Source of the DNA: Ophelia neglecta
Taxonomy: Eukaryota
NCBI GenBank assembly: GCA_965285935.1
Contig: OZ260666.1
Location: 30,690,001-30,754,000 of the forward strand
Direction: 5' to 3'
DNA length: 64,000 nt
In this document: positions 6,926 through 49,305 of the stretch, piece after piece
Numbering within the stretch: position 1 is the stretch's first letter
How the letters are laid out: each line of letters starts with the position of its first letter
Notes under the pieces: model-generated
What the model was told of the DNA's origin: nothing
Database searches by the model: none
Seen by the model: only the letters and a program-made list of their open reading frames with translations
Translations under genes and position numbers: made by a program

Positions 6926-9900
6926 ATGTTGCCTGTAAATGCTGGCTATATTTTGAGGCAAAAATCTAGCACACCGGTACTAGTATTTTGCATGAGGATA
7001 TTTTGTGAGTAAGATATTTTCTCTGAACATTGCATTAAGGCATTGATGGTTCATGTATTCCAATGATTCAAAAATAATAAAAAAATTGGAATTTAATTGA
7101 TCTTCAATTTGTAAATAATAAAGGGCAGTATTTAATGTATTTAGATTGTCTCTGTTGAGCTGGATATTGCTAATTGCCGAGTACTTTTCAGTCCTACTTC
7201 TCACTGGCGATGCTCTACAGGCCTTTTACATAAATGAGGTGAATTATGATGACAAAAATGACCTTTTCGAGCTGCACGGCAACCCAGCCAATGAATTTGT
7301 AGAGATATATGATGGTGGGGTGGGAAACAGCTCCATGACCTGGGTGAGCTCCACACAGGAATACAAACTGGCTCTGGTTCGACTGAATGCAATGGGGCGG
7401 GTTACTGCCACAATAGACCTCTCTCCCTATTCCACTGATCAAAACGGCTTCTTTGTGATAGGGGGTGTACACATCCACAACCGGGATCTGAACATGCCCG
7501 GGCTCACCTGCAACCGAGGTGGGGCATGGGCACTCTATGCGGTATCTCAAAATCTTATTTTGTCATAAAGTTACTTTTGATATGTGCACTGGGGGCAAGT
7601 AACTGGAGTGAAGCTTCCAGCAGTGTTTTCAATTTACTTTTGTATGACATTGAAGTCTGAATTCACTAGGGGATGTTGTGATAAAGACACACAAACCCTT
7701 GTTCAAACGGCAAACTTGAATAATGAAATTAATACATTTACTTTTTGATATAATTTGTGCATCGTTAATGTTTTTCTTATAGCCAACAAGCACTGCTCAC
7801 TCTTCTTATATCACAAACTTTGTACTGAACACTGGGAAATATGCCTTTCTACATGATGTACTGGTCTGGGAGCACCCTGACACATCTGCTGTGTGGAGGG
7901 ACACCCTCCTTTACACATCTGCCAATCCATCAATGGATCTCCCTCCCTCTGTCCACAGTCCTAATATCACTGACTGGCCAACAGAGTTTGATAATGTAGG
8001 CAATGTTAGTATACAGAATTTATAGAATAATTATAAACAAAATTGTTCAACTGCCTTTTAATGGAAAATGATTTATATATCTTATAAAATTTTATTCAAA
8101 CTGGTTTGGGAAATCTCTCAAAAAACTGTAGGTTTATTTTAACAAAGATTATAGTATTTTTCATAGCTTCTTTGAATGTTGTCATTGCAGGTTGATAAGT
8201 CATTGAGTCGCTGCAGCAGTTTCGACGAGGGGATGGACAGGAAGAACCTCTCTTCTTTTCGACCTATGCCACTAACGCCTGGGGCTCCAAACCACTATTG
8301 TGATGGTAACTAATTACCATAGACTTATTTGATAAAAATTCTAAGTTCCTCATAAGCCCTCACAGATTAAATAACAGCTCACCTTTTTTATATAATGAAC
8401 CATATAGTACTGTGAACTTAGAAAAAACCTGCATTGCTTACTGAAAAATTCCAGGAATTGATCCCCTGCCCAATTCAACCAGTGTGGCCCCAGAAACAAC
8501 GGAAACAATGGAAAGCACTTCTGCCACCACTGCTTCTACCACAACAACAACCATGACCACAATAACCACAACCGCACAAGAAACCACCACGCAGCAAAGG
8601 ACCACCCAAGAGATTACAGTGGGAGACACCACTCTGCGCTGTCTCACCACAGGAGTTACTACTATTGAACGACAAACCACAAGTGAGAACTTGGCAACTA
8701 CAACCATTAAAGATAGCACCACTGTTGTGGCCAGTACTACTGTGACAACCACTGAGACACCAAGCATGGTTACCATATTAAACGATAATGTACCAGTATG
8801 TACATGCCCCACAGAGCCCCAGGCCTCCTCCATCAGCTCTACAGCCCAAGCTAGTAGTGTAGAGGATGGAGAAATGGGTTCCCCCTCTATTGGAGCTGCC
8901 ACTGTAGGCATGGGAACATCCACTATGGAGGCTAATACTGTCCCAGACACCACTTATGGAGCATCTACGGGTCTGTATTTAGAACTTACAACAGACGGAG
9001 AGGTGGTTTGTCCAACGTCAGAAACGCTAGCAGCATGGCCCCTGACATCAACGCCAAAAGTCGAGACAACTGCTGGGGTCAATATTACTAATGCCACTGC
9101 TATACCCCATACCAGCACAGATTCTGAGACTGCTAAAACAACAATGGATAGCATTTTGTCAGCCTTAGACACAGATGGGAATTCTGGGAGTTCTACTACA
9201 GCTGCAGGTATTTGATATACTAATTGTAAGCTACTGCAGCAGGGTCCAAAGAAAGACCAGTGCTTGCACTGATGGAACCCTTGTTGAATGAAAATCCAAG
9301 AACAAATACATTTAGATATATTAATGCTAGCAAACAGCTTGTTTACTTATCTATGCTTGCTGGAATTACAGGCATTGTCATTAATAATTCATATTCAAAC
9401 TTTGAACAATGCCATCTATGTATATTGCTGATTCACAGATTGCAGACCCCCACCTGAAGTGACGAATGGCTTCATATCTGAGTGGACTGACAACAGCACA
9501 GCAGTGTACAGCTCAGTGGTGTACAACTGTAGTACAGGGTACTCTCTGTCAGGGCATGATGGCAGAGTGGTTTGTAACCCCAACATGACCTGGAGCACCC
9601 CGCCAGTCTGTCGCAGTATGCTCTCATCAGCTCCATGGCTATCTGTCATTTTATTGTTATGTTTATAACCTTTTAAAAAGTTTCAGTTCTTAAAGGTTAA
9701 TTCTATTAACATAGCAATGCCTCTAAGGATGACAGAAACCTCTTTTGTTACAGATATACAAGGTTGAAATTGATAGCTCTGTACTTAGAATATATGTAAG
9801 ATTTGTATAAATTGATATTTTAGAATATTGTGATATACCATTGGTGAAGAATGGGACTGTGAATGTTGAAGGGCTGCCTGTACATGACAGTGTCATGGAC

Positions 9901-11372
9901 ATAGAATGTGAGCAAGGGTTCTACCTGCTCCAGGACAGTCATGTGGTCTGTGACGCAGGATACTGGAAGCCTGGCCTGCCCACTTGTCAGCGTAAGCTAC
10001 CTCACTGACAATTAAAACACAAGCAAGGAAAATAATACTTCATTTATGACTTTTAATGAAGTTGATACTGAACACTAAATTTTGTGATATTATTAAATTC
10101 CTGATAGCCCTGTAAAATAGTCCATGCCTGTGAAGGTTGTGTTTTAGGTTTAAATATTTCAATTTGGACAGGTTATCAGGTTTATATGCCCTTCATGTTT
10201 TTAATTTCCTGAATAGAGATATGGTGGCCCTATATATATATATACATATACATGCGAAATACATATTTATGAGTTTTTAATTTGGGGTCCAATTCGTTTT
10301 TAATGAAAGTTAGTGAATTTTTTAACAGTATCCATCAGTCATTTTCAAGTTCAATTGGGCTTTTCTCCTCTCTGTTAACAGCCTATGTCAAGAGTTCAGA
10401 GATTGTGGCCAATGATAGCGAGTCAGGGGAGCTGACTGTAGTATGGGGTGTGTGGTTGCCCTGGACCTCCTGTACTACTACCTGTGGAGAGGGCTCGAGG
10501 ATCAGGTACCGGATCTGTAATCCAGAAGACTACAACTGCACAGGTCTACATCACCACAGACATTACAGTCTATATTTATAATAGTACTAAATGTCCCCCA
10601 AACTATCCAAATTGTGCCAACAGTAGCTGACCATTTCATGTTTCCAAGTATTTAATCCAAGTTCTCGTTGATGATGCAGCCAACCCGATTGAAGTAGGAT
10701 ACTGTTATGAGGCTTACTGCCCCAAGGATGGGGCTTGGCTGAGCTGGGGCTCCTGGGCTCTGTGCAGCTCCTCCTGTGGAATCGGAACCAGACTCCGCAG
10801 TCGGAAGTGTCTCGGGCCGTTCCACAAAGGGCGGCCCTGTGAGGGAAAGGACAAAGACTGGGAATCCTGTGAGCTAGAGCCCTGCCCAGGTCAGTCAGTT
10901 TCCAAGCCAAAAGTATTTACTGCCCATAGATGCATTTTTTGCTTATCCTATGTTGTGTTTTCTGTAATCTTCCGTTAGGGGCCCCTAATCAGTATTTATG
11001 TTATTTTTTTGGACTTACAAAACCTGCTATTTTGTACATTATCTCAGTAGTAGACAATCCCAAATGAGCCCTCATGTATAAATTGATGTCTCAATATATC
11101 TGCTTAAAGTTCTTTTTGTTTTGCTTTGTTTTTAAGATGCTGGTAAAAAGAAGATAGTAAAGGTAGTCCTTTCTGAGGGATTTACCAAATCGGATGAGAG
11201 GCAGTCTGCTAAGACAGTGGCTGCCATTGCAATTTCACTGCTGGCAGCGGAGTGCCTTGGAATGTTATTATTGGATATTAATCCTTACACTGTCTACATG
11301 TTCTTTAAAAAGCGCTTTGGCAAAGTGCCTGATGTCTCAGCGAAAAAAGCCAAGAAGAAATACAAACCTTGA
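6926..11372 (+). CDS. Type I membrane protein: signal peptide, lamin-tail-like (LTD) domain, Thr/Ser-rich mucin stalk, 2 Sushi/CCP, 2 TSP1, TM, short basic tail (829 aa, 10 exons)
   Basis: Phase-consistent exons 6926-7004, 7192-7541, 7783-8004, 8191-8305, 8455-9207, 9439-9615, 9824-9991, 10382-10543, 10662-10889, 11137-11372 (2490 nt). LTD-like motifs: FYINEVNYDD..EFVEIYDGG..TIDLS..TDQNGFFVIG..SLSRC..TPGAPN. Sushi: CRPPPEVTNG..YNCSTGY..C..WSTPPVC and CDIPLVKNG..CEQGF..WKPGLPTC. TSP1: WLPWTSCTTTCGEGSRIRYRIC and WGSWALCSSSCGIGTRLRSRKC. TM follows DERQSAK. TATAAAA at ~6847; AATAAA at 11884. Confidence 0.85.
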
Positions 11373-24750: not shown

Positions 24751-27700
24751 CTATGTCGAATGACCAGTTTGTTCCTCCACTTTTATCAGCAGTCCAGTAA
24801 TGATCACAGTTCCTCGCCTATTGGTAGCCCATTCTAACTCTGCATTTGGAAATTTGTCATCCATCTGTTTGTTTCCAAGTCCTATAGTTTCTTTGCCCAC
24901 CTCATACGAATCTGGACGTATACGGACCTGGAGGGCCACTCGGGCCTTAAACTGCCTACCAGCGTCCTGAAAGCTAGAAATAGGAACACAGTTTCAACCT
25001 GAAATATTCTCAGAAGCAATTCGAGATATGTCAAATCGGAACCCTCACCAACGGAGATATATTTGTCTGGACATTTGTCTTACATGATAAACCGATATTT
25101 CAGAAATACCTTTGTAGTGGGGCATATACATTGCATCCAGCGTATTTTATAGAAGGGGACAAAAAAAGCCTGCGAATATCATGACCGCTGGGCGCGCTAG
25201 CTTCATTCCAGTGGTTCTTTGGAGGCTCTATCCTTTCTCCTTCCTGGGTCACATCACCTATAAGGAATGGCATCGTTATACTCAGCAAGTTTTCATAAAT
25301 TCTGATAAAATGTATGGTACGAAGACAAGTTCATAAAAGTTCAAAGCAAAGTTTGATACCGGGCATCAGTAGGTCACCGGTTTCCATAATGCTTTTTATT
25401 AAACTGGACCTGGTGCCGTGGAAGGCGACATGCCACTTAGAAAACGCCTTCAAACCGTCTGCTCTTGGCGGGGTTCTGGTTTAGAGGGAGAATAAAAACA
25501 GTAAAAAGTCAAGTACTGAATACAGTTGTATGCTGGTGGGCTAATTGTGTTTCGAAGGAAATGGACACCCATAATGTGCCCGTTCATACAGAGAAAAACA
25601 AGCGTGTCGCCCCTGTTTTAAATATACTAGTATATAACATATCATTACTACTTTTATTTCAGAATTTCAATAACTTATATCGTATTCTTTCAACTCACTT
25701 GAGGCCATATTTACACCAGCCCATTGGTATACCATACAGTTTAGGCGGTACACCCCTCTTGAGATACAAATCGTGTCCACGCTTTGAGTGACAACGGGTA
25801 CAGAAACAGGAGTCAGCAGTGTGTTCATAAAATGCGGCTGTCAAGGTATTCAAAAATAACAAATTGATATATCAAATGGGTAGTCTTGTCTGGTTATTCT
25901 CATGCCCAGTACATTTTATAATATATTTAATAGTTGTTTTATTACAATTTTTTTTACTTGTTTAGTATAACATTAAAGGCCTAGACTCACTCTTAAATTA
26001 TGAAACATTTCATTTGTCTTACGTGCTAAGCTTATAATTTCTTTAAATTTGGCACAGAGGTCCTGATAAGGACAGCTATCACCTGACGCGGCTCCCGGCT
26101 GAGATGGTAGGGCGGTTCCGAAGTTCATACTTTGGGCTATACAAGGGAAACACGTTATGGTCAATAATATATCTTAAATAATGTATCTTAAAAAGACGCA
26201 ATTATTGGAACACAACTCAATTGTGTTCAACGGCAATCACATGCAGAGAAGTTTTAACTCAATATCATGCAAGAAGCAGTATGATCAGGACTGTGCTACG
26301 AGTGGTCATCAACTTTTGAAGAGAGGGGAGGGGGGGGGGATCCTTGGGGGTGGGGGCAAACAATTGCAGCATATTCAAATTGGACGTGCGGGGGGGGGGG
26401 GGCACAATTTTATGACATATTATTTATCAAGAACGTTCAATATTAAGTATTAATTTCATTTTCTTTCCATGAAAGAACTTCCTATTTAATTTTTAATGTT
26501 GATGTAAAATGCCATTTGGTTACTTCGGCGGTGCTCACAGTTATTATCCCATTTGATTTATAGGTCGAGGGATGTTTTTGCAAGAATAATACATCTTCAT
26601 GCATGAACTGTTTAACTTCCCTTTAAAATAAAAAAGATATCCGAAAAAGCGTATTATGCGGTACAACTTTGATTGAGACGGGGTGGGGGGGGGGGGGACT
26701 GATAAAGGAAATATCAAATGCTTGTCGTAGCCTTATTAAAATTTCGCCCCGATACCGTAGTAAGGAGTGACGTCCCCCCTCCCTTTCCCGTAGTAAATAC
26801 CCACCCTCAATTGGAGTATGTATGCTTTCAACTTCTCCGTGAGGATAGAAGGCGGCGCCCTGTTGAGAGTAATCCTCATTACTAGACGAATCCAATCGTG
26901 ACGCCGTGGAATCAGACCTCGGAATGGTAACTGCTTCTGGAAGCCAACATGAAAAACGGGACAAATTGTCGATATTCTTTTGATGAAAACATCTTGAGCT
27001 TAAAGTTCATTTAGGCCTACTTACACATGCCTGATTACCCGGCCCTTTTCCGACAATGGTTGAAAGGCCCTTCTAGCATATTTAAAAGGTGGTAATTTAC
27101 ATAGGAATGTCACACGACTCTAAATTCCCTGAATCAGCATTCTAAGATGGGTTGTGGCTATATTGCAATAGGGCCAATCAGAACGGGCGTTCTTAAGTGT
27201 CGTCGAGAATGAGGCAATCAAGCATGATAGTGAGCTGATCTACAGAAATGGATTAGAAGGTTCGAGAAACATATTTTTCCAACCTTTTTGTACGACCTCC
27301 AGTTCTAGACCGGGGGCCATGTCTAGTTCCATCACGGCCCAATGAGGGCCAGTACGGTCTGAGAACGCCCTCCCCATGTCATCACCGTTCTGATAAAAAT
27401 GAATATCCCCGGATGACGTCATCAGAACGCCCACAGTGTCTCCATTCACTACATTCCTCACCATATCGTTGTTGTACGGTCGAACGTAGGCGCCGTCGTA
27501 AAACAGGTTATTCATGTTGATAATGCACGATTCGCTTTTCAGTTTGAATAATCTGTCCGGTATGTTGGCGTCCTCAAGGTCCGTGGGATCAACAGGAATC
27601 ACTCCCATGTTGACATATGCCTCTGCCTACAGGGAGAGGTAACGCCAGACATTAAAAACATCATTTATACACAATTGTATAAAACTTGTTCTTATAAATA

Positions 27701-30700
27701 CTTATAAATAAAGGAAAGTTTGAGGCACAGTGATATGATGAAGGCACAGCCTTGGGTCGAGCGTAGATATACAAATTATACAAAACACGAGAGTTATGGG
27801 CATCTAGAACATTTGTACCAAAAACACCTATAAGGCCTACACACTTGCATATTCACTTAAATTCATATCATGAAAGCAAGATTCTTTGGGTTTTATGAAC
27901 CGTACAAAGCACGCCCGGAGCTCGTGAAATGTAGCGGGCAGCCACCGTCACTACGAAATGGGCCAGCAACCGTTCCAACTTTTACCCTTTTGCCAGCAGT
28001 TGCCTAGTCCAGAATCAGTATTCTGCAGCCGGAAACAAACCCATTTTGAAAAATTGACAGTATTCAGGTTTTCATATGATCTCCCATACAGGCTTTTTCC
28101 ACATGTCCCATGTGCACACATGTAACTACAAATATTATCGAGTGTAGCTCGAGGCTGGGCCCTCCATCTTGCAATAAAATATGTGCCACTGGAATATGTC
28201 AAAACAGCTGCAAAATCATCTATGAATCTGTATACTTTCTTATTATCAGTTGGGTTGTTTCCGGTTGCACCATTCTGGCGTTGTACGAGCCCTGGCGCCG
28301 CATTGCTAGATTAGCCCAGAATTTTGTTATATGATCTTAACCTATTATTTGTTTCCGTGCTATTTATTCTAGATATCAATAACTGTAGTTTTGTAAGTAA
28401 TTGTATAGCTACGCTCGATCAAAGGCTCTGCCTTTAGGCCTATGACATTACAAATCTCTGTTTTGTTGAGAAAATAAAACAATGTAAATATCAATGCATG
28501 TACGGCACTTCTGCATGAACACCAGTAGCCTAAGAGTGGAGCCACTGGAATCCATATTTTCAGCTGCATGTGAACTCACAGAGGAGATGGTGGCTTTGGC
28601 TTCAAATAGCACGTTAGGTTTTAGAGGTCCTCCACTGAACACAATTGCCTCATTCCTATTTACATATCTACAGGTTGCTGTTTTGTCATTGTTTGCCAGT
28701 AACACGTTTTTTCCGGCCCGGCGGTGGAATTTCATGCCGGTCCCAAGTGGAACATCTGATTTAAATGACAACAAATAAAATTTGGTTATTCACAATGTCA
28801 CGTGTTTAACAACAATAAAAATACACACACGACTCCTTATTATAGGAAAAAAATGTATTAGGTAATTATATTGATGTATCTTAACCATTTCCCTTGAAAA
28901 ACGCTCACTTTTTCATTTCCACTTTAATGTATGCATGGGTCAAAGTACTTTTAACTGATGTTACCTTTTCTAGGAGGCGGGGCTCTTGCTGCTGGCTCCT
29001 CCTCTGCCACTAGAAATTCCTGTTGTTCTGTTGGTATAGCAAATTGTCTGTACAGCATCTCCTGCTCTTCTAAAATACGACATTTCATAATAATGTCAGA
29101 CTATATCGCAGTTCATGCAATGACACGTTCTTTGAATATTTAATTACTAGTGAAATATTATGCATCTTTAAGGAATAAAAACAGAGCCCAGAGAGGCTTT
29201 AAAAAAGAAACACATCTTTAGATGGATGCTTGATTTGACCTCACCAAGATTCTCTTCGCCGAGAAGCTGTTGGTGTTCATGATCAACATCGGGAAAATCT
29301 TCTAACTGTAAATTCTGGGCGTCTATTTCCACCTGATCGCTCTCTTCTATGTTGTCCGAGTCAGAATCAGACAAGGTCGCTGGAAATAAATAAATAAAGA
29401 TGAGGGAAGCTTATAATCAAGAAACGATAAAGTAGAACAAGTGACGGGGAATGCTATTGGAGTTGCCTCAATTTATGAGTGCAAAAGTTCTCATCTTGCT
29501 TACTATTGTAGGGTGGACGAGCGATCTCTTTGGCTGTGGTTTCCAGCTCGACAACAGCCCACACCTTAGAGATTTTGTCTACAGAGTAAGATTTTCCAAG
29601 GTCTTTAGCATTGTGATAGAAATGAATCGCATTATTGGAACTTTTCATGACTCCAACGGTGTCTCCTTTTGCTACCTTCAACAGAAAAGAAATTAAATAA
29701 AAAATATGATAATAGTACTCTTTTGTCTTCATAAGGTTTTATATGGATTGGTCCCTGATTATCTTGCATCGCTTATGTCCTTCAAGCTTTTACTTCGCGA
29801 AAATGTTCACTCAACAATATCGTGCCTACTCCAAATCCTAAATTCCAAGCAATAAACACAAGGAGACCGGATTTTCCCGGTTGCTGCTCCACGGCGATGC
29901 TTGTCCCTCAATATCGATTAAATTGACAATACTAATAAATGTAAACAGGTGTTAGAAACATATCTTTTTAGAGCTGCTTTGACCAGTAATTATCCGTCAA
30001 ATCTCCCCATTTAATATGGCTGGATATTACTGTATAATTAGGTCCAAGTTGGCCATTAGGGACACCCAACGATGGCTCAGGTCAATTTACTAAGAAATTC
30101 AAAAAAAGGTAAGAGCTGGGAACTAACACCCATATAAGACCTTTTTGAAATAGATCTGTTTTAGGCCTATTTGCAAGCCAGCTATATTTTTCGCAGATGA
30201 CCTGATGGCAGCCAGTCAAGAAGATTTTGAGGGTATTTCACTATCAGAACAGATATTCATCAGAACATATTTGTGTGACCTCGTACCATGACTATGCACA
30301 GAGAAAGTGACACGTTTTTATTTGTTACTTCCATGTTTTTGTTGATGTATTTTTTATTTCCTGATAACTTACCTGTATATATTTGCCGCAGGCCCTGATG
30401 ACCGACCCACACCAGCCGATGTGTTCGGGCCGTACCCAGCTGTTGCTGTCCTCGTCCAACCGCCAGTTAGGGTCGACCTCCCAGTGCCAAAACGTGAACC
30501 GGATGTCTTCCCGTCCCGGGTCATCCACCGTGGCTCCCACATGGAGGTAACTGGAAATTCCCTGGAAAATACAGACGCTGCATATGATTGACTTTACGGA
30601 ATGGATGCTGACTAAATGTGCCCAATGTTTTGTTCTTGTCCATTTCAAGTCTATATCAGGCTTTTTAAAACCCTTAGCTTAGGGATGTGTAGCAGTATGA

Positions 30701-32800
30701 TATATTCATGTACTTTCTTGAGCATGCTAAAATAAAAGATAAATGCTGGAAAAATTAGAGGAATTTACTGAACGGGGGTGGGATGTGTGGGGGAGGGGGG
30801 TTGCCCTAATGTGTGCCATTGTGTGGGAGGGCGGAATTTCAAGAAATACAAGATTATATGTCGGGTGAGTCCCTTGGCATGATATTCAATGTGCCTTTTA
30901 AAATAAATATAAGTAAATGGCGTGAGGAATAGAAGCTGCCTTCTAGCCACATTAACTTCGTACACATATTCCGACTGGTAAATATTAGTAACAGAACGTA
31001 TATTGCTGAATGGGTGTTAGGGTCATGAAAGAGGCGTAGCCACTCTTATACTGTCCCGTCTATAATTAGCGGCCACTCCTTTAGTTTTTATCAAATACGA
31101 CCAGCTAGCTAAAAAAAAACTTCTGCAAAGCTTTGTGGTGTTATACAGACATCTTCATTTGGTCAATGAATGTGACTTTGATAAACTCAATCAGGCCTAT
31201 GCCATATCGCTAGGCTAGAACATTTTTTGCTTTAAATAAAGTAATCTCTACCATATTTCGGGTTTACTCGAAAGTGTTTAGTATAGCTGTGTTAGGTGAG
31301 TAAATACGCCATTTATGGAGGTAAAACAGATGTGCTATAGAAGTCCTGCATTTCCCTTCGGATTGTACATACTACTAAAGATGAACTAAAATGTTGATGT
31401 TCTAAATAAATTCTTAATATATAGAGCTGCATAAGGTCAATTGGTTAGGGCTTGAATATGTTTTATGTTGTTTTCCTTGATACCTGACTTTTATAGATTT
31501 TTTTTAATTGACAGGAGCATGATTAGCTTGTCGGACAATCAGACACTATTTTTCCAGTCTATATACCATTAATTTAAGATATTTGTTTTATTAATTATCC
31601 CTCTTAAGTAAGGATAACGCCCCGACATGTAATCTCACATGTACTTGCTGTATAGCAGGCTTTGTAGACTTTTATAAGTACGGTATATAAAGTTCAAAGT
31701 CAACCATATCAGGCCGTACAGTGTAGATAGGTACTCGGCCACTTAAATGTACAGCGGGCATGTACATTTACTGTGGTGTAAAAATACTATAATAATATGT
31801 AGGCCTGTGGTATAAGGACTAAATACGTGCCTTTACACATCCAAACAGTTGGCATATGATAGGTTATAATGGGTTTGCCTATATATTATATGGCAGATCT
31901 ACATTGGAAACATAAAACGGGACATTATGTAGATCTAGGATAACACATAAACCATTCATACGAAATCCTTGTCAGAAGCTTCCTTGATATATATTTGATA
32001 GCACGGGCATAAGTAGTAGGCCTATGGGTGACAATTTAGTTAATAAATCCCGTTTTATATACTTTTCTGGGAATTTCTAGGTTAAAAAGCATTTAAAAGG
32101 GACTATATCACATTAAAATATAGCCACTTAAAGTTGAATTGAATTACTTTAACTAACATATTTCTTTTGTTTAGAGCAAATTTTGTACCCTCTAGGAATG
32201 AACTTTGCAATGTACATGTGAAATTATCTTTGTAAGATAAACTGTGAATAGAACATAATTTCACGATTCACAGTGATCACTTTTTTGCCAATCACAAGTC
32301 ACGAACTTGCATATAAGCGCACCCCTACCCCCCCCCCCCCCCCCTCCCCACCGACCTAATCTGACCTAGGAACCATGTCTTCGAAAGGTGTATGTGGTGG
32401 TGTTCCAAGGGGTGGGTGGGGGGAGGTCGTATATAGCCCCCTGGGCAGCAGGCATGTTTCGCATTTTTAAGAAACCAATTAGATATTAAATAGATATTGA
32501 ACCCTGGCCCTATTATTAACATGTCTATTAGGAGAGGAGCCTCTTATAAAGTTATGGATATGCAAACGGAAATACATACCGGTAGTAACGTTAGTTAAAT
32601 TAGTTGTACGGAGATAGAGAACTTACATCAATATTCAACAGCTTAACCTCGTACAAAACGTCCACTTCCAACGGCTCCGCACTGTAAACAACAGCTCCTT
32701 CGTTCACCGCCCTACTCTTTCTCTTAGCAATTTGACCATTATTTCGTAACTTCACATTCTTCCCTGTGTATTTGTGAAAAAGGACAGTGTTAGTCGCCAT
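24751..32800 (-). CDS. NEURL4: NEURL4-like protein: 2 NHR (Neuralized) domains with acidic linker, Cys/His cluster, C-terminal ADP-ribosyltransferase (PARP-like) domain; 721 aa, 13 exons
   Basis: Phase-consistent exons 32800-32627, 30561-30373, 29675-29504, 29379-29245, 29069-28965, 28755-28580, 27626-27284, 26936-26805, 26136-26023, 25837-25699, 25475-25360, 25257-25110, 24973-24751 (2166 nt). NHR motifs: FHKYTGKNVKL, FHRRAGKNVLL, GDTVGV..IHFY.N..D.G. Cys cluster: CPYQDLC..CFCTRCH. ART motifs: YGIPMGW, WHVAFHGT, LFLSPSIKYA, LQVRIRPDSY, ELEW. Likely a paralogue rather than the 6-NHR orthologue. Confidence 0.9.
29730..29985 (+). mobile_element. Decayed L2-group LINE 3' fragment (intronic)
   Basis: Fragments KVLYGLVPDYLASL, GDRIFPVAAP and LETYLFRAA, separated by frameshifts, match the L2 ORF2 C-terminus. 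Confidence 0.55.
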
Positions 32801-35996: not shown

Positions 35997-37579
35997 TCAA
36001 AAACTGTTCGTTGGCGTCCTCGACTGCCCTTTTATACCCCATGTGCCCTTGATGCAGGACGTTCGACAGTTGCAGGGTGCTGGCTCATTTTCCCCGCTAC
36101 AAACTCTGTCTTCGAGTGGCACGTGTACCGTAAGCCCATGTTTGGGGCGTACGCCGGTGCCCCTGAAAAGAGGGCTTTCGGCGGCATTTAGCGGGTACTG
36201 AAGCCGACGGGGTACAAGTTCGTTGCCAGCCTCTGGTAAGCGGTGTCTTTTGCAGCAATGGAATACATGCTGGAGTAGATTGCCACTAAACGCCATGTAG
36301 ATCCAGGGGTTACAGCAACTGTTCAGGTTTGCTAACAACAAGCATATCACGAAAGTATAACCTGCAAAACAGAAAAAATAAATAAATGTGGCTTAATCAT
36401 ATATGTTATCGCCACGGTCGAGAGAAAAATAATGTTTCCGTTTTTATGATCATTGAAAACAACAAAATACAGACGCCGTTAGTTTTCAATAGATATTAGA
36501 ATTATGAATACATTGTACTCACTGTCGTGAGGTGCTGTTTCGTCGTAAGCCCACCACATTTGAGTAATCATGAAAGGTGACCAGCAAATAAGATAAGCAA
36601 GAATCACTACTATTGTTAATTTGATAGTTTTCAATTTTGAACTAGATAGGTTATGACCAGTATGACGTCGAGGTATACCCATAAGTCTTTGAGAACTGCT
36701 GCGATCGTTTTGTGACGACTGGTCCTGTATAACGCAAATATGACCCGAGCCGTTGAATTTGTAAGTAATTTTCCCAGTAGGCAATCGGGAAACACCATTT
36801 AGGTTGCCATGTTTACTATGGCGAACGTTCTTCCACACTTCATGACAAATTCTTCCATATAGAATTACAAGAACTGCGAATGGTATAATGTAGACTGTCA
36901 ATGTAAATGATGTGATGTACAATTGTAAAGTCCATCCGGGATGGAAATGTGCCCAACAGTCAAACTCTCCTGGCGCTAATTCCCGTTGTCGGAATATTAT
37001 CACCTGTGGTATACTGAGAAATGCAGCACAAAGCCAAGCTATGCCTACCATCCTATGAACTTTTCGCGGTGTCCAAGAGTAAGAAGACAGTGGTTGACAG
37101 ATGGATCTGTAGCGATCCACCGCAGTTATCACCAGAACGTAGGTACTCAAATAAATGACCATTACCTGCATGTACTTCACAAACCGACACAAGGGGTCGC
37201 TTCCCATAAACCGGAAGGTTGCATCCCAAGCCAACTGTGGAAGGACATTAAAAGTGGCGACAAGTAAATCTGCAACACTAAGATGCATTATTAAGAGGTG
37301 TATGCGGCTTGTTTTCATTTTGCGATAGCGAAGGGCTAATAGAACACAAACGTTTCCGATTAGAGCCATTATGAAGATAAAGGCTTGCACCCCTATCTCT
37401 ATTTTGGCCAATCTTCCATCTCGCGCAGTCGCAGTCATGTTATTTATTTCTGAAACGATTTCCATGCCAAAAGCTGTAGTCGTCATTTCAGGACTAAGGC
37501 TCTTCCGGAAATAATTAACGGTCTGGGCCCGTGCTGACAAGCTGTTGGTTACATCAAACGTCCTCCCCTGAGCGCTCAT
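35997..37579 (-). CDS. Vasopressin/oxytocin-type (conopressin/cephalotocin-like) class A GPCR, 473 aa, 2 coding exons
   Basis: Exons 37579-36523 (A|gtgagt) and 36361-35997. Motifs [75 protein letters not shown]. The intron between TM6 and TM7 is as in OT/VP receptors. An acceptor directly before the ATG (exon starts 37581) implies upstream exon(s). Confidence 0.93.
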
Positions 37580-38129
37580 TCCTAACACAAAAAAAGAAGA
37601 CCAATTAAATAGAAAAACAAAATGATCAGGTGGCATAGTTTGTTAATACTATAGTATAAGTAGGATATTTCTGAAGTGTTCAAGTAATATCATTAAGGAA
37701 TACAGCTAAAAGGTCCAATTAGAAAGCGACGACTAGATAAACGAAGGCCTACATCATTGCCTATTTGCCTTTTTTTCTAGCTTAAAAACAATAACATTCT
37801 ACCTACCAAGACATAAATGGCGTTGACCGTTCAAACAATATTATAAATTAACCACAGTCCGTTTCTGCCAGATATTGCCTTACTAGTTGACCTCTCGTGT
37901 GTTGTCTATGAGACATTGACATGTAATTGACTAAGCAAAGTTAATAACCGTTATTACCGCTGAGTATGAGAATGTGTATTTAGATTCTCAAGTGTCAAAT
38001 TTGTGGATGGTAACACGACTCCTATGAACCAGTGCAAAGCTGTCAAATCAGAAAGAGTGCTATCAATTCCTTGTTGGCCAAAGAAAAGTGTCTTTATAGA
38101 GCACTTTAGGAAACTGCCTAGCATTAATC

Positions 38130-41100
38130 AGTAGAATAGTTAGACCTTGTCCGCTATAATTTCCCCTGGGTGTGTCCAGAAGGCTTCTACACGTGAAAGG
38201 GCGCCAACATAGCAGTAAAAGAAGAGATGATACTGAGGGTTTCGAAATCTTATCGGATTTAGGATATTTCTACATGATATATGATGTTTTATGTGTTCGT
38301 ATATATAACATTTCGACCATAGTGACAACCCGTATCTTCATGATCAATATTTTTATAATAATAATGGTTACTAATAATAATGACATTTCTCGCCTGAATA
38401 AACAAGAGTTACGTGTGGGACAATGGAATTGCAGGGGTTTTAGTAGCTCAAAAAATTACATATGCTCACTACTAAATTCTTGCGACATCCTGGGTATAAA
38501 CGAACATTTCTTGTACCCGCACGAACACCAAAGACTTACTGGTTTACACCCTAATTTTCACGGTATAGCCAAATCTAGTAAAACACTTCACGTAGAAAAC
38601 TATGGCAGCGTAATTGGTTGCGGGGGTGTCGCCATATACTGGGCAAAATATATTGATAATGTTCAAGTTGTAAATATTGACTCTGATCGTATCTGTGGCA
38701 TACAGTTAGTTAATGCTGATGGTACTACCTTGTCTATTATGTGTGTATATATGCCACAGCAGCAATGTAAGAATGAAACATACTCTGATATATTAGATGT
38801 ACTTTATGAACATGTAACGAGTCTAAGCGAGACAGGGTCTGTCATAATCATTGGTGATTTGAATGCCAACCTCGACAAAAGTCATGGTAAACGTGGCCCA
38901 AATAAGCCAATACTAACGACTAACGGTAAATTACTGAATGAGTTTACCGTATCTAACTGTTTAAAAGCAATTGACTTGTCGGATAAATGCATTGGACCAC
39001 TTTATACTTACATAGGATACGACGGGTCCAGGTCATATATAGATCACTGTCTTGCTTCTGATGCTCTTGTACCTAACGTAAAAAGTTGTAAAATAATCGA
39101 TGACAATTTGCATATCACGTCTGATCACCTTCCCATTATTACCACCTTCGCTCGGGAAAACATATGCAAATTGGTCCACATCAACCCAGTCTCCCACCAG
39201 AGACTAAACTGGAGCAGGCTAACACAGGAGGAAATCTCATCGGGGTACACCAGAGCCCTGACACATGTCTTGACCAGTGACCCGAGGTTAAAGGAAAAGC
39301 CATCGACATGTGAAGATATCGACAACTACGTGAAACTACTTACAGCGGCTCTGACCTACACTGCTAAGGCTACCATACCATGTAAGCAGTATCGTAAATG
39401 GGTAAAACCATATTGGAGTCCTGACATCAATACCACAAAGAAAGAACACCTAAGAAATTATAACGAATGGAATAATGCAGGTAGACCACGTAGTCATGAA
39501 AACGTTTTATTCGTAAGGTATAAAGAGTCAAAGAGACAGTATAGAAAAGAGAGACGCGCAGCAGAACATCGGGAGGCCGAACGAGAACAGAACGAGATTA
39601 TTCAGACTGGAGAAATTGACCAGAAATATTACTGGCGACTGGTCAACAGCAAGAGACAAAAAGGAGTGCGAGTCAATTTAACAGAAGGCGAAAATGGTCG
39701 CCTCTTGACAGAAATGGAGGAAATTCGCGAGGATTGGCGACTGTATTTCTCAAACCTGGTCAAACCGAACGATGATCCCACATACAAGAGTAAGTTTAAA
39801 AACCTCGTGGAGGAGAGCGCTAAAGAGTACTACGACTCGCCACAGCTTATGCCTGACGATATTTCCTGCCTACCAATTACTGATAATGAGGTAATGGCTA
39901 TGGTGAAAAAGGCAAAATCAGACAAAGCTGGAGGTTTTGACGGCTTAACTGCAGAGCACCTGAAACACGGAGGGGGCCAATTAATCTCTACAATCACGAA
40001 TTTATACAACGCAATCTTGGAGATGGAATACGTCCCAAGTGACTTCAAGCGTGCCATAGAAGTGCCCTTATTCAAAGGAGGGGGCAAGAATCCGAGACTC
40101 AAAGACAACTATAGAAAAATAAGCTTACTTCCTAGCCTAGGGAAGATCTTGGAAGGTATATACCATCGGAGGATACAGAGCTGGTCTCGAAATCAGAATC
40201 TCGTCAACCCACTACAAGGGGCGGCCTTAGATAAGTGCTCTAGTCGACACTCTACTATCTTATTAAGGCAGACAATACACGAACACAAAGAAAGAGGCGA
40301 CGATGTATATGTAACGTTGCTGGACTGCAGAAAGGCGTTCGACACCATATGGATAGATGGGCTTTTCTACAAACTCTACCACTATGGTATTAGAGGAAAG
40401 ACCTATAGGATACTCCGCCAATGGTATAGTAATTTTCTGAGTTCTGTTCGTGTGGGGAACGAGCTGTCTGATTGGTTTGATGTCTCACAAGGCTTGCACC
40501 AAGGAGGGATGCTATCCATGCAACTCTTCGTCCTATATTACAATGACATGCTCCAACAAATATCAGAACGGAATCTCGGATGTCATATATTGGGGATAGA
40601 TTCAAGTTGCCCAGGATTTGCCGACGATATAACCTTGGTGACATCCAGCCGTAAATCCATGTTAGCACTCCTTGACATTGCCCATGCTTATAGCAAAAAG
40701 TGGCGCCTGGACTATAATGTGTCTAAATGCGAGATGCTTAAGTTTGGCCATCTCAAAACAAACAGAGACGAGAGAGTCCATCTTGGCCCAGGATTGATCC
40801 CAATTTCTGAAAAATCCGTCCATCTCGGTGTCCCCCTTGTGACAACCAGGAAGGCAATGACCGAGAGTGTCCGCGACCGAGTTAAGTCTGCACGAAGGAA
40901 GATGAACTCACTCCTTGGCGTAGGGACAAGCTATGGGCGATACAACACTAGAACGTTATCTAAACTGTACTGGTCCATTGTCACCCCCAGCTTCTTGTAT
41001 GGCCTGGACTTGGTAAGGCTTACTTTGACCCAGCTAGACCTGCTCGAAGTAGAGCATCGCAATACGGCAAGAAGGATTCAAAACCTCTCACCAGCAGCCA

Positions 41101-42085
41101 GTAATGCAGCCGTCCTAGTGTCCTTGGGATGGCCCACAGTGGAAGCTTACCTGGATGTACAGCGATTAAAGACATTACGCGACCTACTTGACTTACCGAC
41201 ATCCTGCATCTATCGGACGCTCACTATAAGAACACTCACTGTGAAAGAATTGCGTGGAAGGGTCCCACCTGAAAGCCCTATAGGATTAATGGTGTCTACT
41301 TATCTGAAGTACGGACTGTATAACACCCTTACAACATGGTTGGAGAAGGGAAAGGTACCTACCAAGACCGCCTGGAAACGACACGCTAAAGAAGTCTCTC
41401 GGCAGTACCTACAGCGTCACTGGAGGATACAATGTCTCACCTTCTCAAGCCTCTCTCTTTTCTCATCAGTCATGACAGAGTACCGCCCTATGGAGTGGTG
41501 GAATTCTGCTACGACAATGACGACTACTAGAGGAGCCCAGGTTGTATTAAAATTGCTCACAGGTACGTCCGCCATATATTCCCACTCCGGTAGACATGTC
41601 AACCGAATGGGGCGCAACATATGCCCCCTATGTGACACAGTAGGAGACAATTTGGAGCATATCTTATACATGTGCCCCGGTTTGTGTGTGGAACGAGCGA
41701 AGGTGCTTGCTTGCATCAGACGTGATATATCACCAGATATTGATAAGTGTCAAAAGATACTCGATTGGAGGTCATATTGCATTGAGGACCGACTAAAGGT
41801 ACTCGCAGGTATAAGCTCCATGTACGGCAAACGTATACATCACGGTTTGAGTAATGCTTAATCAATCCTGACCATGTAGTAGTGGTATACGTACATAAAT
41901 GTGTTCTAGCAGGGTATTCCTTATCATCTCTATAGTACATCATCTTAGTATGGAGACTGTATATATGTTTTGTTTATTCTCGGTAATTACTTGTCGCAAA
42001 TTTGCCTGTAGTTTATTTATATCACATCTTTAATGTACATGTAACTCTCCAGAAAGTGGAGGCCAAATAAAACTATATATATATA
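38130..42085 (+). mobile_element. Non-LTR retrotransposon (LINE, possibly RTE-X-like) with intact EN-RT ORF
   Basis: The 3' end has a CTCCA-GAAAG-TGGAG hairpin (42047-42061), AATAAA and a (TA)n tail to 42085. The 5' boundary is approximate, with no unambiguous TSD or ORF1. The clade call is tentative. Confidence 0.88.
38172..41861 (+). CDS. LINE ORF2: AP endonuclease, reverse transcriptase, C-terminal CCHC zinc knuckle
   Basis: Uninterrupted 1229-codon ORF. EN motifs: GQWNCRG, GINEH, GDLNA, SYIDH, SDHLPI. RT motifs: YRKISLL, LLDCRKAFD, QGGMLS, FADD. Knuckle: CPLC..EHILYMC. The true start is probably an internal ATG near 38340-38365. Confidence 0.92.
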   Translation: MSRRLLHVKGRQHSSKRRDDTEGFEILSDLGYFYMIYDVLCVRIYNISTIVTTRIFMINIFIIIMVTNNNDISRLNKQELRVGQWNCRGFSSSKNYICSLLNSCDILGINEHFLYPHEHQRLTGLHPNFHGIAKSSKTLHVENYGSVIGCGGVAIYWAKYIDNVQVVNIDSDRICGIQLVNADGTTLSIMCVYMPQQQCKNETYSDILDVLYEHVTSLSETGSVIIIGDLNANLDKSHGKRGPNKPILTTNGKLLNEFTVSNCLKAIDLSDKCIGPLYTYIGYDGSRSYIDHCLASDALVPNVKSCKIIDDNLHITSDHLPIITTFARENICKLVHINPVSHQRLNWSRLTQEEISSGYTRALTHVLTSDPRLKEKPSTCEDIDNYVKLLTAALTYTAKATIPCKQYRKWVKPYWSPDINTTKKEHLRNYNEWNNAGRPRSHENVLFVRYKESKRQYRKERRAAEHREAEREQNEIIQTGEIDQKYYWRLVNSKRQKGVRVNLTEGENGRLLTEMEEIREDWRLYFSNLVKPNDDPTYKSKFKNLVEESAKEYYDSPQLMPDDISCLPITDNEVMAMVKKAKSDKAGGFDGLTAEHLKHGGGQLISTITNLYNAILEMEYVPSDFKRAIEVPLFKGGGKNPRLKDNYRKISLLPSLGKILEGIYHRRIQSWSRNQNLVNPLQGAALDKCSSRHSTILLRQTIHEHKERGDDVYVTLLDCRKAFDTIWIDGLFYKLYHYGIRGKTYRILRQWYSNFLSSVRVGNELSDWFDVSQGLHQGGMLSMQLFVLYYNDMLQQISERNLGCHILGIDSSCPGFADDITLVTSSRKSMLALLDIAHAYSKKWRLDYNVSKCEMLKFGHLKTNRDERVHLGPGLIPISEKSVHLGVPLVTTRKAMTESVRDRVKSARRKMNSLLGVGTSYGRYNTRTLSKLYWSIVTPSFLYGLDLVRLTLTQLDLLEVEHRNTARRIQNLSPAASNAAVLVSLGWPTVEAYLDVQRLKTLRDLLDLPTSCIYRTLTIRTLTVKELRGRVPPESPIGLMVSTYLKYGLYNTLTTWLEKGKVPTKTAWKRHAKEVSRQYLQRHWRIQCLTFSSLSLFSSVMTEYRPMEWWNSATTMTTTRGAQVVLKLLTGTSAIYSHSGRHVNRMGRNICPLCDTVGDNLEHILYMCPGLCVERAKVLACIRRDISPDIDKCQKILDWRSYCIEDRLKVLAGISSMYGKRIHHGLSNA

Positions 42086-44531: not shown

Positions 44532-44721
44532 TGTTGTGTTCTTATTACCTGTGACCTCCCTGGCACTGTATGTCTGTATTACCTGTGACCTCCCTTTGTA
44601 CGTGTCATGTGATCAGAATATAATTACGTTATACCGGAAGCGGCACATGTCAGTTTTGTTCCTTGTTTACCATCGAATAATCATATATCATCGGGCCGGG
44701 GGAAGCTCATCAAATGTAACA
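44532..44721 (+). repeat. 5' LTR (190 bp)
   Basis: Direct repeat of 49116-49305 with no mismatch found by eye. Contains an internal 19-bp duplication, TATTACCTGTGACCTCCCT. Confidence 0.96.
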
Positions 44722-44746
44722 TTGGCGACGAGGATAAACTTTAGTT

Positions 44747-47700
44747 ATGGCTGCATCAGATTTGACCGATGTTCGTGGGATCAAACCGTTTGACACCACC
44801 GGAGAGGCCGGAGTTGTATCGCACCGGTGGCGGGCTTGGCTAGAGGAATTTGAAGCCTATGCCGATTCTAAAGGTTTGTTTGTCGATGATGAGACGGATG
44901 CAAACAAGGCTCAGAGGAGAGCATTGTTACTGTATTCTGCTGGTGCTGCCGTACGGGACGTTTACGGTACGTTAGCTGGAGAAATTACGGCCGCGATAAG
45001 GAAAGACTACAAAGGTACGGTTACACATTTGAATAATCATTTCATCGTGGAGGCCAACCAGTCATACCCCAGAATCCCATTTTTCTCGTGTATGCCGAAA
45101 GAGGGGGAGACAGTAGCCCAATTTGTAACCAGACTGAGAATAGCATCACGTGACTGTGGTTTCGGTAATGGCTGTGATGATATTATAAGAGACAGAGTGG
45201 TGTTATCCTGGATGGATCCTGTCTTGAAGAGGAAGTTAGTGGAAAAGGGGCTTACACTGAAGCTTGCTGAACTTCTTAGAATTGCTGCAGCCCATGAGGC
45301 AGTCGAATTACAAATGAAAGCTATGTCAGGGGTACAGAACACTGCGAGTACAGATTCTGTGAATGCTGTTAAAGGCAAATCATGGACAGATGGTGATAAA
45401 GCCAAAAAGATAGAATGTTTTCGCTGTGGGCTTTTTGGACACATGCGTAATGACTCAAGTTGCCCTGCTAAGACACAATCTTGCAGACGATGTGGGTTAG
45501 TCGGCCATTTTGAAAAAAAGTGCCGCCGAAGACCACAAACAGGTGTGAAAGACCACAAACAGCCAAAGTCAGGTGACAAGAAACAGCGGAGACATAAGAA
45601 GGTACACCATTTACAGAAATATGACAGTGATAGTGAGGGAGATGATGGCTATGCGTTTGCCACAGGTTCGTCATTTGAAACGATTCCCATCTCTGTTGGA
45701 GGAGTACAGATAGAAGTAGTGGTTGACAGTGGGAGTGACAGTAACATAGTATCTGAAGAAACATGGAAATCACTGAAAGCAAATAAAATTAGGTGTCAGT
45801 CAAGGTCTAGTGCCAAGAAGTTATACCCATATACTTCTGACACACCTCTTGAGACTCTTGGATCATTTGATACAGTGGTCACAGCAGGAAATATGACAAC
45901 AAATGCCCATTTCATTGTGATCAAGAGAAAAGGTGAATCACTTCTCAGTCGACCTACTGCACTACAGCTAGGAGTGCTGAAGATAGGGTTAGGTGTCAAC
46001 TCAGTCAGTGCTCAGATAGATATTGTCAAACGTCACCCAAAAGTTTTCGAAGGCATTGGAAAATTGGTCAACCGTCAGATAAAACTTAGCATTAACCCTG
46101 ATGTCAAGCCGGTTGCACAACCAGTCAGACGCTCACCGTTTGGTCTCCGAGCTAAAGTAGAGGCCAAAATTAAGGAGCTGATTGACAAGGACATAATAGA
46201 GCCAGTCGAAGAGCCCAGCCATTGGGTGAGTCCAGTAGTAGTCGTTCCGAAGGCCAAGGGGGACATACGTCTTTGTGTGGACATGCGTCAGGCCAATTTG
46301 GCAATACAGCGAGAACGACATCCGATACCAACGTTTGAGGAAGTCCTACATGATATGAACCAAAGTCGAGTGTTTAGCAAGGTGGATTTGCGTTGGGGCT
46401 ATCATCAGCTCGAGTTAGAGCCCGAATCTCGTAACATCACAACTTTCGTTACACATTGCGGATTATTCCGCTACCGTAGACTTGCATTTGGAATAAATTC
46501 AGCATCAGAAATATACCAACATGAAATACATAAGGTGATTCAAGGGATTCCTAAAGTGGAGAACATTTCTGATGATATCATAGTTCATGGTCAAAACATG
46601 GCAGAGCATGATGAATCTCTGGAGAAATTGATGAAACGTCTTGAAACCAGTGGTTTAACACTCAATTTAGAGAAGTGTGAGTTTCGAGTGAACAAGATCA
46701 GTTTCTGGGGACACTGCCTTTCTGAGAAGGGAGTTGACCTTGGCGCCGATAAAGTGGAGGCAATCGCAAAGGCACGAGAGCCCCAGACTGTCAGTGAAGT
46801 GAAGAGTATTTTGGGTCTGGCCGAGTTTTGTCACGATTTTGTGCCTGATTTTTCAGTCATGGCAGAACCATTGTATAAACTTACCAGAAAGGGAAATCCA
46901 TTCATCTTTGGACCTGAACAGAGGAAATCATTTAAAGCCCTTCAAGCAGCACTGAGTAATCCAGAAACTCTTGGTTATTTTGACATTAATGCACATACCA
47001 AGGTGATCGCGGACGCGGGCCCGTCCGGTGTAGGTGCTGTACTTGTACAAATTCAGGAAAACAAGCCTAGGGTGATTAGGTATGCAAGCCGCTTACTTAG
47101 TGATGTGGAGCGCAGATACTCGCAAACAGAAAAGGAAGCTTTGTCACTTGTGTGGGCGTGTGAAAAGTTCCATCCATACCTTTATGGAATAACTTTTGAT
47201 TTGGTCACAGACCACAAGCCTTTAGAGACTATTTATTCGCCAAAGTCGAAACCATGTGCACGAATTGAGCGATGGGTACTGAGACTACAACCGTATGAAT
47301 TCAAGATAGTTCACATTCCTGGTAAAAATAACATTGCAGATTCACTTTCAAGGTTATTGAATGGTGAAATAGAAGGCCAATCTAGGCTATCAAGGAGAGC
47401 CGAGAACTATACCAGATTTGTGGCAGTTAATGCTACTCCGTCCGCAATGACAATCAGAGAAGTCGAGGAAGCCTCAGCAGAAGACCCTGAGCTGGAAGAA
47501 ATCCGTGTATGTATAGACACTGGCAAATGGGACTGTAGTGAGAAACTGTACAATGCTGTCAATCCAGAATTATGCAGCATTGGGAAACTAGTCCTAAGAG
47601 GGTCAAGAATTGTTATTCCGAGAAAATTGAGACCTAGAATACTGGTCTTAGCTCATGAGGGACATTTAGGCATTGTGGCTACGAAACAAAACCTAAGGTC

Positions 47701-48763: not shown

Positions 48764-49115
48764 TTATTCATGCCTTGTGTTACATAGATTTTAATATGGC
48801 AGAGTGTAGGCGGATCGCTGCTCAGGCCATAAGTGTGAAATTTGAGTTAAAATATTAAAATGAGTAGCTTATATTAAACTTATATTCTAGTTAAATTTGG
48901 AGGCATTCCAGATTACGAGAACTTTACATTTACATATAAATTCAATATACAGAAACTTGAAAGACAATGTGTTCAGTTAGATGCCATATTAAGCTTTATT
49001 ATTTACAGAGATAACATGGACATTTAACATTGGAAAACAGTTACAGTCTATACTGTTTATAACTTGTGATATTTCATTTTAAAGTTTTATAAGTCTAAGC
49101 CGAAAATAGGAGAGA

Positions 49116-49305
49116 TGTTGTGTTCTTATTACCTGTGACCTCCCTGGCACTGTATGTCTGTATTACCTGTGACCTCCCTTTGTACGTGTCATGTGATCAG
49201 AATATAATTACGTTATACCGGAAGCGGCACATGTCAGTTTTGTTCCTTGTTTACCATCGAATAATCATATATCATCGGGCCGGGGGAAGCTCATCAAATG
49301 TAACA
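49116..49305 (+). repeat. 3' LTR (190 bp)
   Basis: Follows the PPT, matches the 5' LTR and is followed by the TSD CCTTT. Confidence 0.96.

Follow-up and report, generated by a model that had tools for sequence, protein, structure and literature searches.

The window analysed here, a 64,000-nt stretch of Ophelia neglecta contig OZ260666.1 (positions 30,690,001 to 30,754,000; G000:C9:30.69-30.75 Mb in a genome of 762 Mb), carries on its minus strand, at 24751-32800, a gene whose product joins two NHR domains to a C-terminal ADP-ribosyltransferase (ART) module of the NEURL4 type. We read this gene as a non-orthologous paralogue of NEURL4 and propose, with moderate confidence, that it encodes a cytoplasmic sensor-effector protein that would ADP-ribosylate its ligand or itself, probably in intracellular defence. 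In this proposal, variable loops of the two NHR domains would capture a protein ligand, flexible linkers would let it reach the ART, and the latter, using NAD+ as donor, would attach ADP-ribose to the ligand or to the protein itself. The outcome might be inactivation of the modified target, its marking for degradation, or loss of NAD+ and cell death, in a setting of defence against intracellular invaders. A cytoplasmic location seems likely because the protein begins with an NHR domain and has no signal-like N-terminus.

Six-frame reading of 24.7-32.9 kb gave a coding sequence of 2166 nt, i.e., 721 codons and one terminal stop without internal stops, distributed over 13 exons (Table 1) and interrupted by 12 introns, all of them GT-AG. 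Splicing was deduced from splice signals, frame, and homology. This agrees with an earlier note made from the sequence alone, which had described a 13-exon, 721-aa gene. Additional upstream NHR exons, which the note had considered, were not detected by hidden Markov model (HMM) searches from exon 1 up to the next upstream gene, a G protein-coupled receptor (GPCR) gene ending near 36,000. We also considered, and dropped, a micro-exon overlooked between exons 2 and 3: the candidates have poor acceptors, and none is necessary because the nearest NHR paralogue shows the same short exon 2/3 junction.

The gene differs from a NEURL4 orthologue in having two NHRs instead of six, in its position in the ART tree, and in not being the only NEURL4-like gene of the genome. 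The separate six-NHR gene that the earlier note had advised looking for lies at G000:C2:25.654-25.674 Mb. In a tree of the ART module (81 rows, 196 columns, after removal of a long-branched Emiliania row and five near-identical array rows), the canonical NEURL4s form a 100/99 clade that includes this C2 copy and excludes the two-NHR gene, which is found in a separate 100/99 clade (clade A). A topology forcing it together with canonical NEURL4 was rejected by the approximately unbiased (AU) test (p-AU 0.0089, on 29 of 82 rows). The paralogy claimed by the note is thus supported by the separate six-NHR gene, by the ART phylogeny that it had called for, and by the AU test. NHR number alone was rejected as proof of paralogy, as a two-NHR model from Potamilus falls inside the canonical clade. 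The four introns of the ART module have the same place and phase in the two-NHR gene and in the canonical one, and we therefore conclude that the former originated within the NEURL4 family through duplication at the DNA level. Its motifs and homology likewise point to membership of the NEURL4-type ART family and to descent from NEURL4, the ART being 40% identical to the genome's own canonical copy and 29-46% identical to canonical ARTs.

The ART module extends from C497 to about residue 716 and contains H579-G-T, F630-L-S-P-S-I-K-Y637, and E693-L-E-W, so that the FHG (at 578), SPS..Y (at 632, with Y637), and ELEW (at 693) motifs listed in the earlier note are all in place. The ART motifs of human NEURL4 are HGS, LLS, and ELE (PMC8932523, PMC7955679), and its HGS and ELEW mutants are inactive in vitro (PMC8932523). 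Both motifs required for human activity (HG[ST] and ELEW) are kept here. The catalytic triad of human NEURL4 reads H-L-E in the alignment of PMC7955679; the two-NHR protein has the His and the Glu, its second position is F630 by the same alignment, and Y637 is a further conserved aromatic residue. The ART exons gave no Pfam match, and a sequence search returned no solved ART structure (best E 0.028, unrelated). The fold was predicted for P0012, an ART-only relative 49.5% identical to the ART studied here, from a 59-row alignment (predicted local distance difference test, pLDDT, 91.6). This model matches PARP catalytic domains in Foldseek (E 1.7e-5, PARP2) and PARP16 in VIA (Z 10.2, root-mean-square deviation 3.4 A, 136 residues aligned; top 17 rows all PARP-like), and a feature search with P0012 likewise leads to PARP clusters. 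Motifs and fold together favour the "apparently intact" ART of the note, in the sense of a predicted activity, and the protein is expected to catalyse ADP-ribosylation via H579, F630/Y637, and E695. The Cys/His cluster that the note had placed ahead of the ART is present, although not as a separate element: it is the conserved N-terminal part of the NEURL4-type ART module. In 69 of 70 paralogues, as in the canonical gene, C-x5-C ends one exon and C-x-C-x2-C starts the next, which is the first ART exon.

At the N-terminal side, the Pfam family Neuralized (PF07177) scores above cut-off on exons 1, 3, 6, and 7, defining two NHRs at about residues 8-172 and 266-431, and a profile of the paralogue NHR exons matches PDB 2e63 (KIAA1787, E 1.9e-18). 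The two NHR domains reported earlier are thereby recovered, as is the Asp/Glu-rich linker between them (33% Asp/Glu at residues 179-248), which may act as a flexible tether or as an auto-modification site. The Trp-rich segment noticed in NHR1 (residues 80-100) can be refined to a loop insertion of ~10 residues, placed by alignment after the conserved G-x-T..P strand and holding three of the four tryptophans (W83, W85, and W91); W100 aligns with an ordinary NHR tryptophan. The insertion is unique to this gene, and in the alignment of NHR paralogues, the columns of the corresponding loop are among the most variable. We found no paper placing the ligand site of NHR domains in a literature search, and for this reason say only that the Trp-rich loop might contact the ligand. 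Both NHRs are 21-33% identical to canonical NEURL4 repeats; matching them to particular repeats was abandoned, since both score best with repeat 1 yet all comparisons fall within this range.

The two-NHR gene belongs to a large family. With the last ART exon as query, three members each gave at least 150 matches (217-220 candidates each), and the union of these searches (150 + 150 + 69 rows, 81 rows of the third search being excluded as repeats by eye) comprises at least 194 loci with a NEURL4-type ART exon, which provides the genome-wide paralogue count proposed in the earlier note. Among them, 124 lie on C12 and 43 on C2, and six, possibly haplotigs, come from small unplaced contigs. Tandem arrays of ankyrin+ART genes account for 78 ART loci at G000:C12:62.53-64.44 Mb (L038-L047, L091-L110) and 29 at C2:4.06-4.73 Mb (L058-L060); about 129 loci are of this type when assigned by position, the sampled ones having been checked. 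One hundred stretches of 10 kb were fetched around ART loci. Thirty of the 31 sampled array loci have one long ankyrin exon holding all repeats (~6-35 by a rough motif count). By reading, the ankyrin frame continues into the first helix of the ART module in 27 of these 30 (both cysteines in 25), and the fusion is therefore visible in the DNA. A stop, frameshift, or insertion interrupts 9 of the 31, which indicates birth and death of copies.

Seventy copies have all four ART exons. The catalytic motifs are retained in 66 of them under a strict pattern (HG[ST] in 68, E-W in all 70), with one in-frame stop, and 25 carry an upstream NHR exon within the fetched DNA. Outside the arrays, the exons found upstream on the same strand encode one or two NHRs, Cul7/CPH and ZZ, PDZ, WW, or kinase and CARD domains, their joining with the ART into one gene being putative, and several copies have no recognisable upstream domain within 10 kb. 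All 40 non-canonical copies in the ART tree form one group (95/93) that also includes a hemichordate protein. Clade A unites the two-NHR gene, a one-NHR gene, a trio of CPH/ZZ genes, and the ankyrin arrays, and clade B (100/96) holds most NHR-ART genes. Such a mixture of N-termini within clade A (100/99) implies that N-terminal domains were exchanged on a constant ART within the very clade of the gene studied here. The gene itself forms a lone, old branch, its ART being 55-57% identical to the nearest paralogues. Lineage-specific expansion, arrays, and birth and death are thus features of the family, in a sample that holds no close species. The ~200 ART copies behind NHR, ankyrin, and zinc-finger domains are likely immune sensors of a family not yet described, which would ADP-ribosylate the targets that they bind.

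Some individual loci deserve mention. The CPH/ZZ trio lies at G000:C12:26.57-26.60 Mb (L049, L050, L130, L085), where three clade A ART genes have upstream Cul7/CPH and ZZ exons. We take this CPH-ZZ order to recall HERC2, reportedly a partner of NEURL4, and these genes are possibly a fusion with a fragment of that partner. Three further arrangements, each on one strand and each only putatively a single gene, are kinase and CARD exons upstream of an ART (L068:1770-9532, C5:16.89 Mb), NHR-NHR-PDZ exons upstream of an ART (L063-L064, C2:18.2 Mb), and a WW exon upstream of an ART (L055, C1:144.2 Mb).

NHR exons evolve about three times faster than the ART in related paralogues. Over seven independent pairs of clade B NHR-ART paralogues, the ratio of non-synonymous to synonymous differences (pN/pS) is 0.82 for the NHR exon versus 0.28 for the ART (Fisher p=3e-6), and the ART is under purifying selection in every subset (pN/pS 0.2-0.3). 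A subclade of five genes shows 56 non-synonymous versus 5 synonymous distinct NHR changes (ratio 3.5, p=0.0014; ART 0.20), all ten of its NHR pairs exceeding 1.6, and the NHR ratio of a nine-gene set is 1.70 (p=0.033). The comparison of NHR and ART exons suggested by the earlier note thus shows faster NHR exons in clade B; for the two-NHR gene itself, the nearest paralogues are too far away (55-57% in the ART). In L076, L080-L081, L083, L114, and L120, the NHR exon is nearly devoid of synonymous differences while the ARTs are far apart (5 versus 106 distinct synonymous changes), a pattern suggestive of conversion or swapping of single exons, after which the amino-acid sequence diversified. Positive selection at the groove of the ankyrin repeats was considered as well, with groove positions as known from designed-ankyrin work and framework columns set by a pattern of our own; the groove ratio, only 1.15 versus 0.60 on the outer face, does not demonstrate it.

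The immune setting would rest on analogy with the rapidly evolving antiviral PARPs (PMC4038475), on marine expansions of immune domains, and on the bacterial-effector origin proposed for NEURL4 ARTs (PMC3417536). A number of observations weigh against it, or against its extension to the two-NHR gene. The pooled NHR ratio over the seven pairs stays below 1, the five-gene subclade was picked after the data had been seen, and the signal comes from clade B and not from clade A. In that subclade, the GC content at third codon positions (GC3) of the NHR exon is 0.75 versus 0.47, with far fewer synonymous changes than in the ART, and with such a combination of high GC3 and low synonymous distance, the NHR ratio may be too high because of gene conversion or codon bias. 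The ankyrin groove result points the same way, the PARP catalytic fold was obtained for the proxy P0012 and not from a model of the protein itself, and human NEURL4 has its known functions in mitochondria and centrosomes rather than in immunity (PMC8932523). The two-NHR gene, moreover, is a singleton with a long branch, flanked by unrelated genes and without tandem copy, and its exons 2 and 7 have no close copy elsewhere in the genome. Among the variants listed for it in three runs of one sample, none of 40 single-nucleotide variants (SNVs; 51 further SNVs exist) and none of 11 indels lies in an exon, many of them being crowded in intron 1. Taken together, the absence of exonic alleles among those listed, the singleton state, and the unique exons are more in keeping with a settled gene than with a receptor under rapid turnover. 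The earlier note's "variable sensor + ADP-ribosylating effector" is accordingly well supported for the family, with its many loci, swapped N-termini, and faster NHR exons, and putative for this lone copy; an immune role likewise has its support at the level of the family and is only proposed for the gene taken by itself.

The main rival follows from these points: the family may be driven by conflict while the two-NHR gene is an old paralogue with a fixed regulatory job and no immune role, its NHRs binding one host partner that the ART modifies, e.g., for ubiquitin-dependent turnover as with tankyrases. We hold this to be unlikely but serious. The isolated locus, the divergence of its ART from the nearest paralogues, its unique NHR exons, and the lack of listed exonic alleles are what such a gene would show, and canonical NEURL4 works with HERC2 at centrosomes as well as in mitochondria (PMC8932523). 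It is harder to reconcile with NHRs that have diverged so far from the canonical repeats and gained a loop insertion, and with a clade that has repeatedly swapped its N-terminal domains and produced the ankyrin arrays. A second alternative, which we regard as improbable, is that the expansion served another conflict (germ-line defence against mobile elements, allorecognition, or gamete competition) or was largely neutral duplication in unstable regions, the ART of the two-NHR gene having no role against pathogens. The arrays are indeed repeat-rich with many broken loci, DNA stimulates the ART of human NEURL4 (PMC8932523), and selection signatures do not identify the opponent. Yet the low pN/pS of the ART in every subset speaks against neutrality, and the domains fused to the ART in this genome and in amphioxus (CARD, LRR, ZU5, GT4-conflict, macro) are of kinds characteristic of immune proteins. 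Finally, a silent, mis-spliced, or pseudo-enzyme product serving only as an NAD+- or ligand-binding scaffold, for which one may invoke ART-fold proteins such as TASOR without reported activity (PMC9027952) and the Phe or Leu, not Tyr, at triad position two (PMC7955679), is very improbable given the unbroken frame across 13 exons, the ART introns conserved with the canonical gene, the intact His and Glu motifs, and listed alleles that avoid exons.

NEURL4-type ARTs of similar composition occur in other organisms. A word-based protein search with the last exon alone gave no match, and a profile of this exon retrieved 692 representative proteins at E<=0.001; 39 long matches were scanned, as were 36 named ART homologues, and no Gig2 sequence was among the proteins retrieved. 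Short NHR+ART proteins, numerous in these two sets, are annotated in Lingula, Glandiceps, Saccoglossus, Ptychodera, Lamellibrachia, and Xenia, and Branchiostoma has LRR, ZU5, and GT4-conflict fusions to a NEURL4-type ART. These homologues fall in species- or phylum-restricted groups of the ART tree (the amphioxus group only at 83/68), so that the compact layout is not unique and expansion occurred several times, with separate events in amphioxus, Lingula, hemichordates, and Lamellibrachia. The lineage specificity that the earlier note had assigned to this layout is thus not borne out. Individual homologues include a macro/WWE PARP14-like protein of Glandiceps with a NEURL4-type ART at its end (P0118), ankyrin+ART and thioredoxin-kinase+ART proteins of the protist Gefionella (P0112 and P0071), and a GT4-conflict+ART protein of amphioxus (P0066).

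On a wider scale, we tentatively suggest, at slightly less than even odds, that these proteins form an unrecognised class of intracellular immune receptors of marine invertebrates, in which a constant NEURL4-type ART was recombined with NHR, ankyrin, LRR/ZU5, ZZ, and CARD sensors and amplified independently in annelids, brachiopods, hemichordates, and amphioxus. The ankyrin array would then be a recognition repertoire, and the two-NHR gene an NHR-type survivor from the base of the ankyrin-array clade. The ART domain itself and short proteins filed in databases under the NEURL4 name are already known; de Souza and Aravind, in 2012, are said to have predicted the ART of NEURL4, and this work and that of Aravind et al. 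in 2015 reportedly consider how NEURL4-like ARTs have spread. A full-text search, which did not reach these two publications, where expansions may be mentioned, brought up no paper on a NEURL4-type ART family that has expanded and swapped its sensors. In the portions available, NEURL4 is handled as one human protein in PMC10789625, PMC7955679, and PMC9027952 and is not named in PMC3482391. So far, NEURL4 has been regarded as a divergent PARP-like enzyme with one gene copy and a housekeeping role; in this genome, its catalytic module appears as a mobile effector, amplified ~200-fold and joined to exchanged and rapidly evolving binding domains. If the defence role is true, it would add an ADP-ribosylation-based receptor class to invertebrate innate immunity, offer many natural variants for learning what NEURL4-type ARTs modify, and provide a natural repertoire of ankyrin repeats coupled directly to an enzyme.

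Among known systems, human NEURL4 shares with the two-NHR protein an NHR-type N-terminus and an ART module with HG[ST] and ELEW, but has six NHRs ahead of its C-terminal ART, in contrast to two divergent NHRs, an acidic linker, a loop insertion, and a ~200-copy family. The short NEURL4-like and LRR-ZU5-ART proteins of invertebrates also combine one or two NHRs, or another binding domain, with an ART (42-50% identity); these database annotations often add ARM, SPRY, or ZZ domains, we found no publication treating them as a family, and none groups with the gene studied here. The macro-PARPs PARP9/14/15 and PARP13 resemble the family in their conserved ART fold, rapidly evolving recognition part, and gene birth and loss (PMC4038475), but belong to another ART subfamily (10-15% structural identity for P0012), use other sensors, and have far fewer copies. 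The expansions of TRADD-N, independent in brachiopods, hemichordates, amphioxus, and cnidarians, similarly pair a constant module with shuffled variable domains (PMC8195603), the constant module being an enzyme in our case. The ART expansions are found in the same sessile marine groups as the immune-domain expansions of that study, and NEURL is absent from its main text.

Tankyrases consist of ankyrin repeats, a SAM domain, and a PARP domain. Their likeness is with the array relatives, which also have ankyrin repeats ahead of an ART; the two-NHR protein has none. The array genes differ from tankyrases by their NEURL4-type ART, their variable repeat number, and their many copies, and the resemblance is one of convergence. 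No SAM domain was found among the Pfam matches of the three array open reading frames (ORFs) scanned, and an identity of the arrays with tankyrases was rejected because the ankyrin ORF passes straight into the NEURL4-type module.

Table 1. Exons and coding features of the two-NHR NEURL4 paralogue (window positions).
Feature	Position	Strand	Evidence
Exon 1, start codon and first half of NHR1 (aa 1-58)	32627..32800	-	Pfam Neuralized E 1.7e-8; GT donor, phase 0
Exon 2, middle of NHR1 with extended Trp-rich loop (aa 59-121)	30373..30561	-	Open frame, AG/GT, phase 0-0; alignable with NHR set; single genomic copy
Trp-rich segment, aa 80-100	30436..30498	-	~10-residue insertion in NHR loop
Exon 3, end of NHR1	29504..29675	-	Pfam Neuralized E 1.3e-5
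Exon 4, acidic linker	29245..29379	-	aa 179-248: 33% D/E, 1% K/R
Exon 5, acidic/proline linker	28965..29069	-	Frame and splice signals
Exon 6, first half of NHR2	28580..28755	-	Pfam Neuralized E 4.9e-7
Exon 7, second half of NHR2	27284..27626	-	Pfam Neuralized E 8.4e-10
Exon 8, Ser-rich linker	26805..26936	-	Putative, from frame and splice signals only
Exon 9, linker and first helix of ART module (C497-x5-C503)	26023..26136	-	Motif and phase-1 intron common to canonical gene and paralogues
Exon 10, C524-x-C526-x2-C529-H530, predicted zinc site	25699..25837	-	Motif in 69/70 paralogues; zinc binding predicted
Exon 11, ART strand with F578-H579-G580-T581; His codon 25420-25418	25360..25475	-	68/70 paralogues
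Exon 12, ART F630-L-S-P-S-I-K-Y637; SPS at 632	25110..25257	-	Sequence motif
Exon 13, ART E693-L-E695-W696 and stop; Glu695 codon 24834-24832	24751..24973	-	E-W in 70/70 paralogues; at least 150 genomic matches per search

The remainder of the window holds unrelated genes and mobile elements. The upstream GPCR gene (36000-37642, minus strand) has two exons and is of the oxytocin/vasopressin type, its best named match being from the annelid Paralvinella palmiformis (57%). Upstream of it lies a non-LTR retrotransposon frame of 1233 codons with endonuclease and reverse transcriptase (38160-41858, plus strand). Positions 44532-49305 hold a long terminal repeat (LTR) retrotransposon with identical 190-nt terminal repeats and a 1341-codon frame encoding protease, reverse transcriptase, RNase H, and integrase. 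On the plus strand, we also identified a Peptidase M54 (archaemetzincin-like) gene at 3863-5206 and, at 7122-10975, a gene with a Thr-rich stretch, one sushi repeat, and two TSP1 domains.

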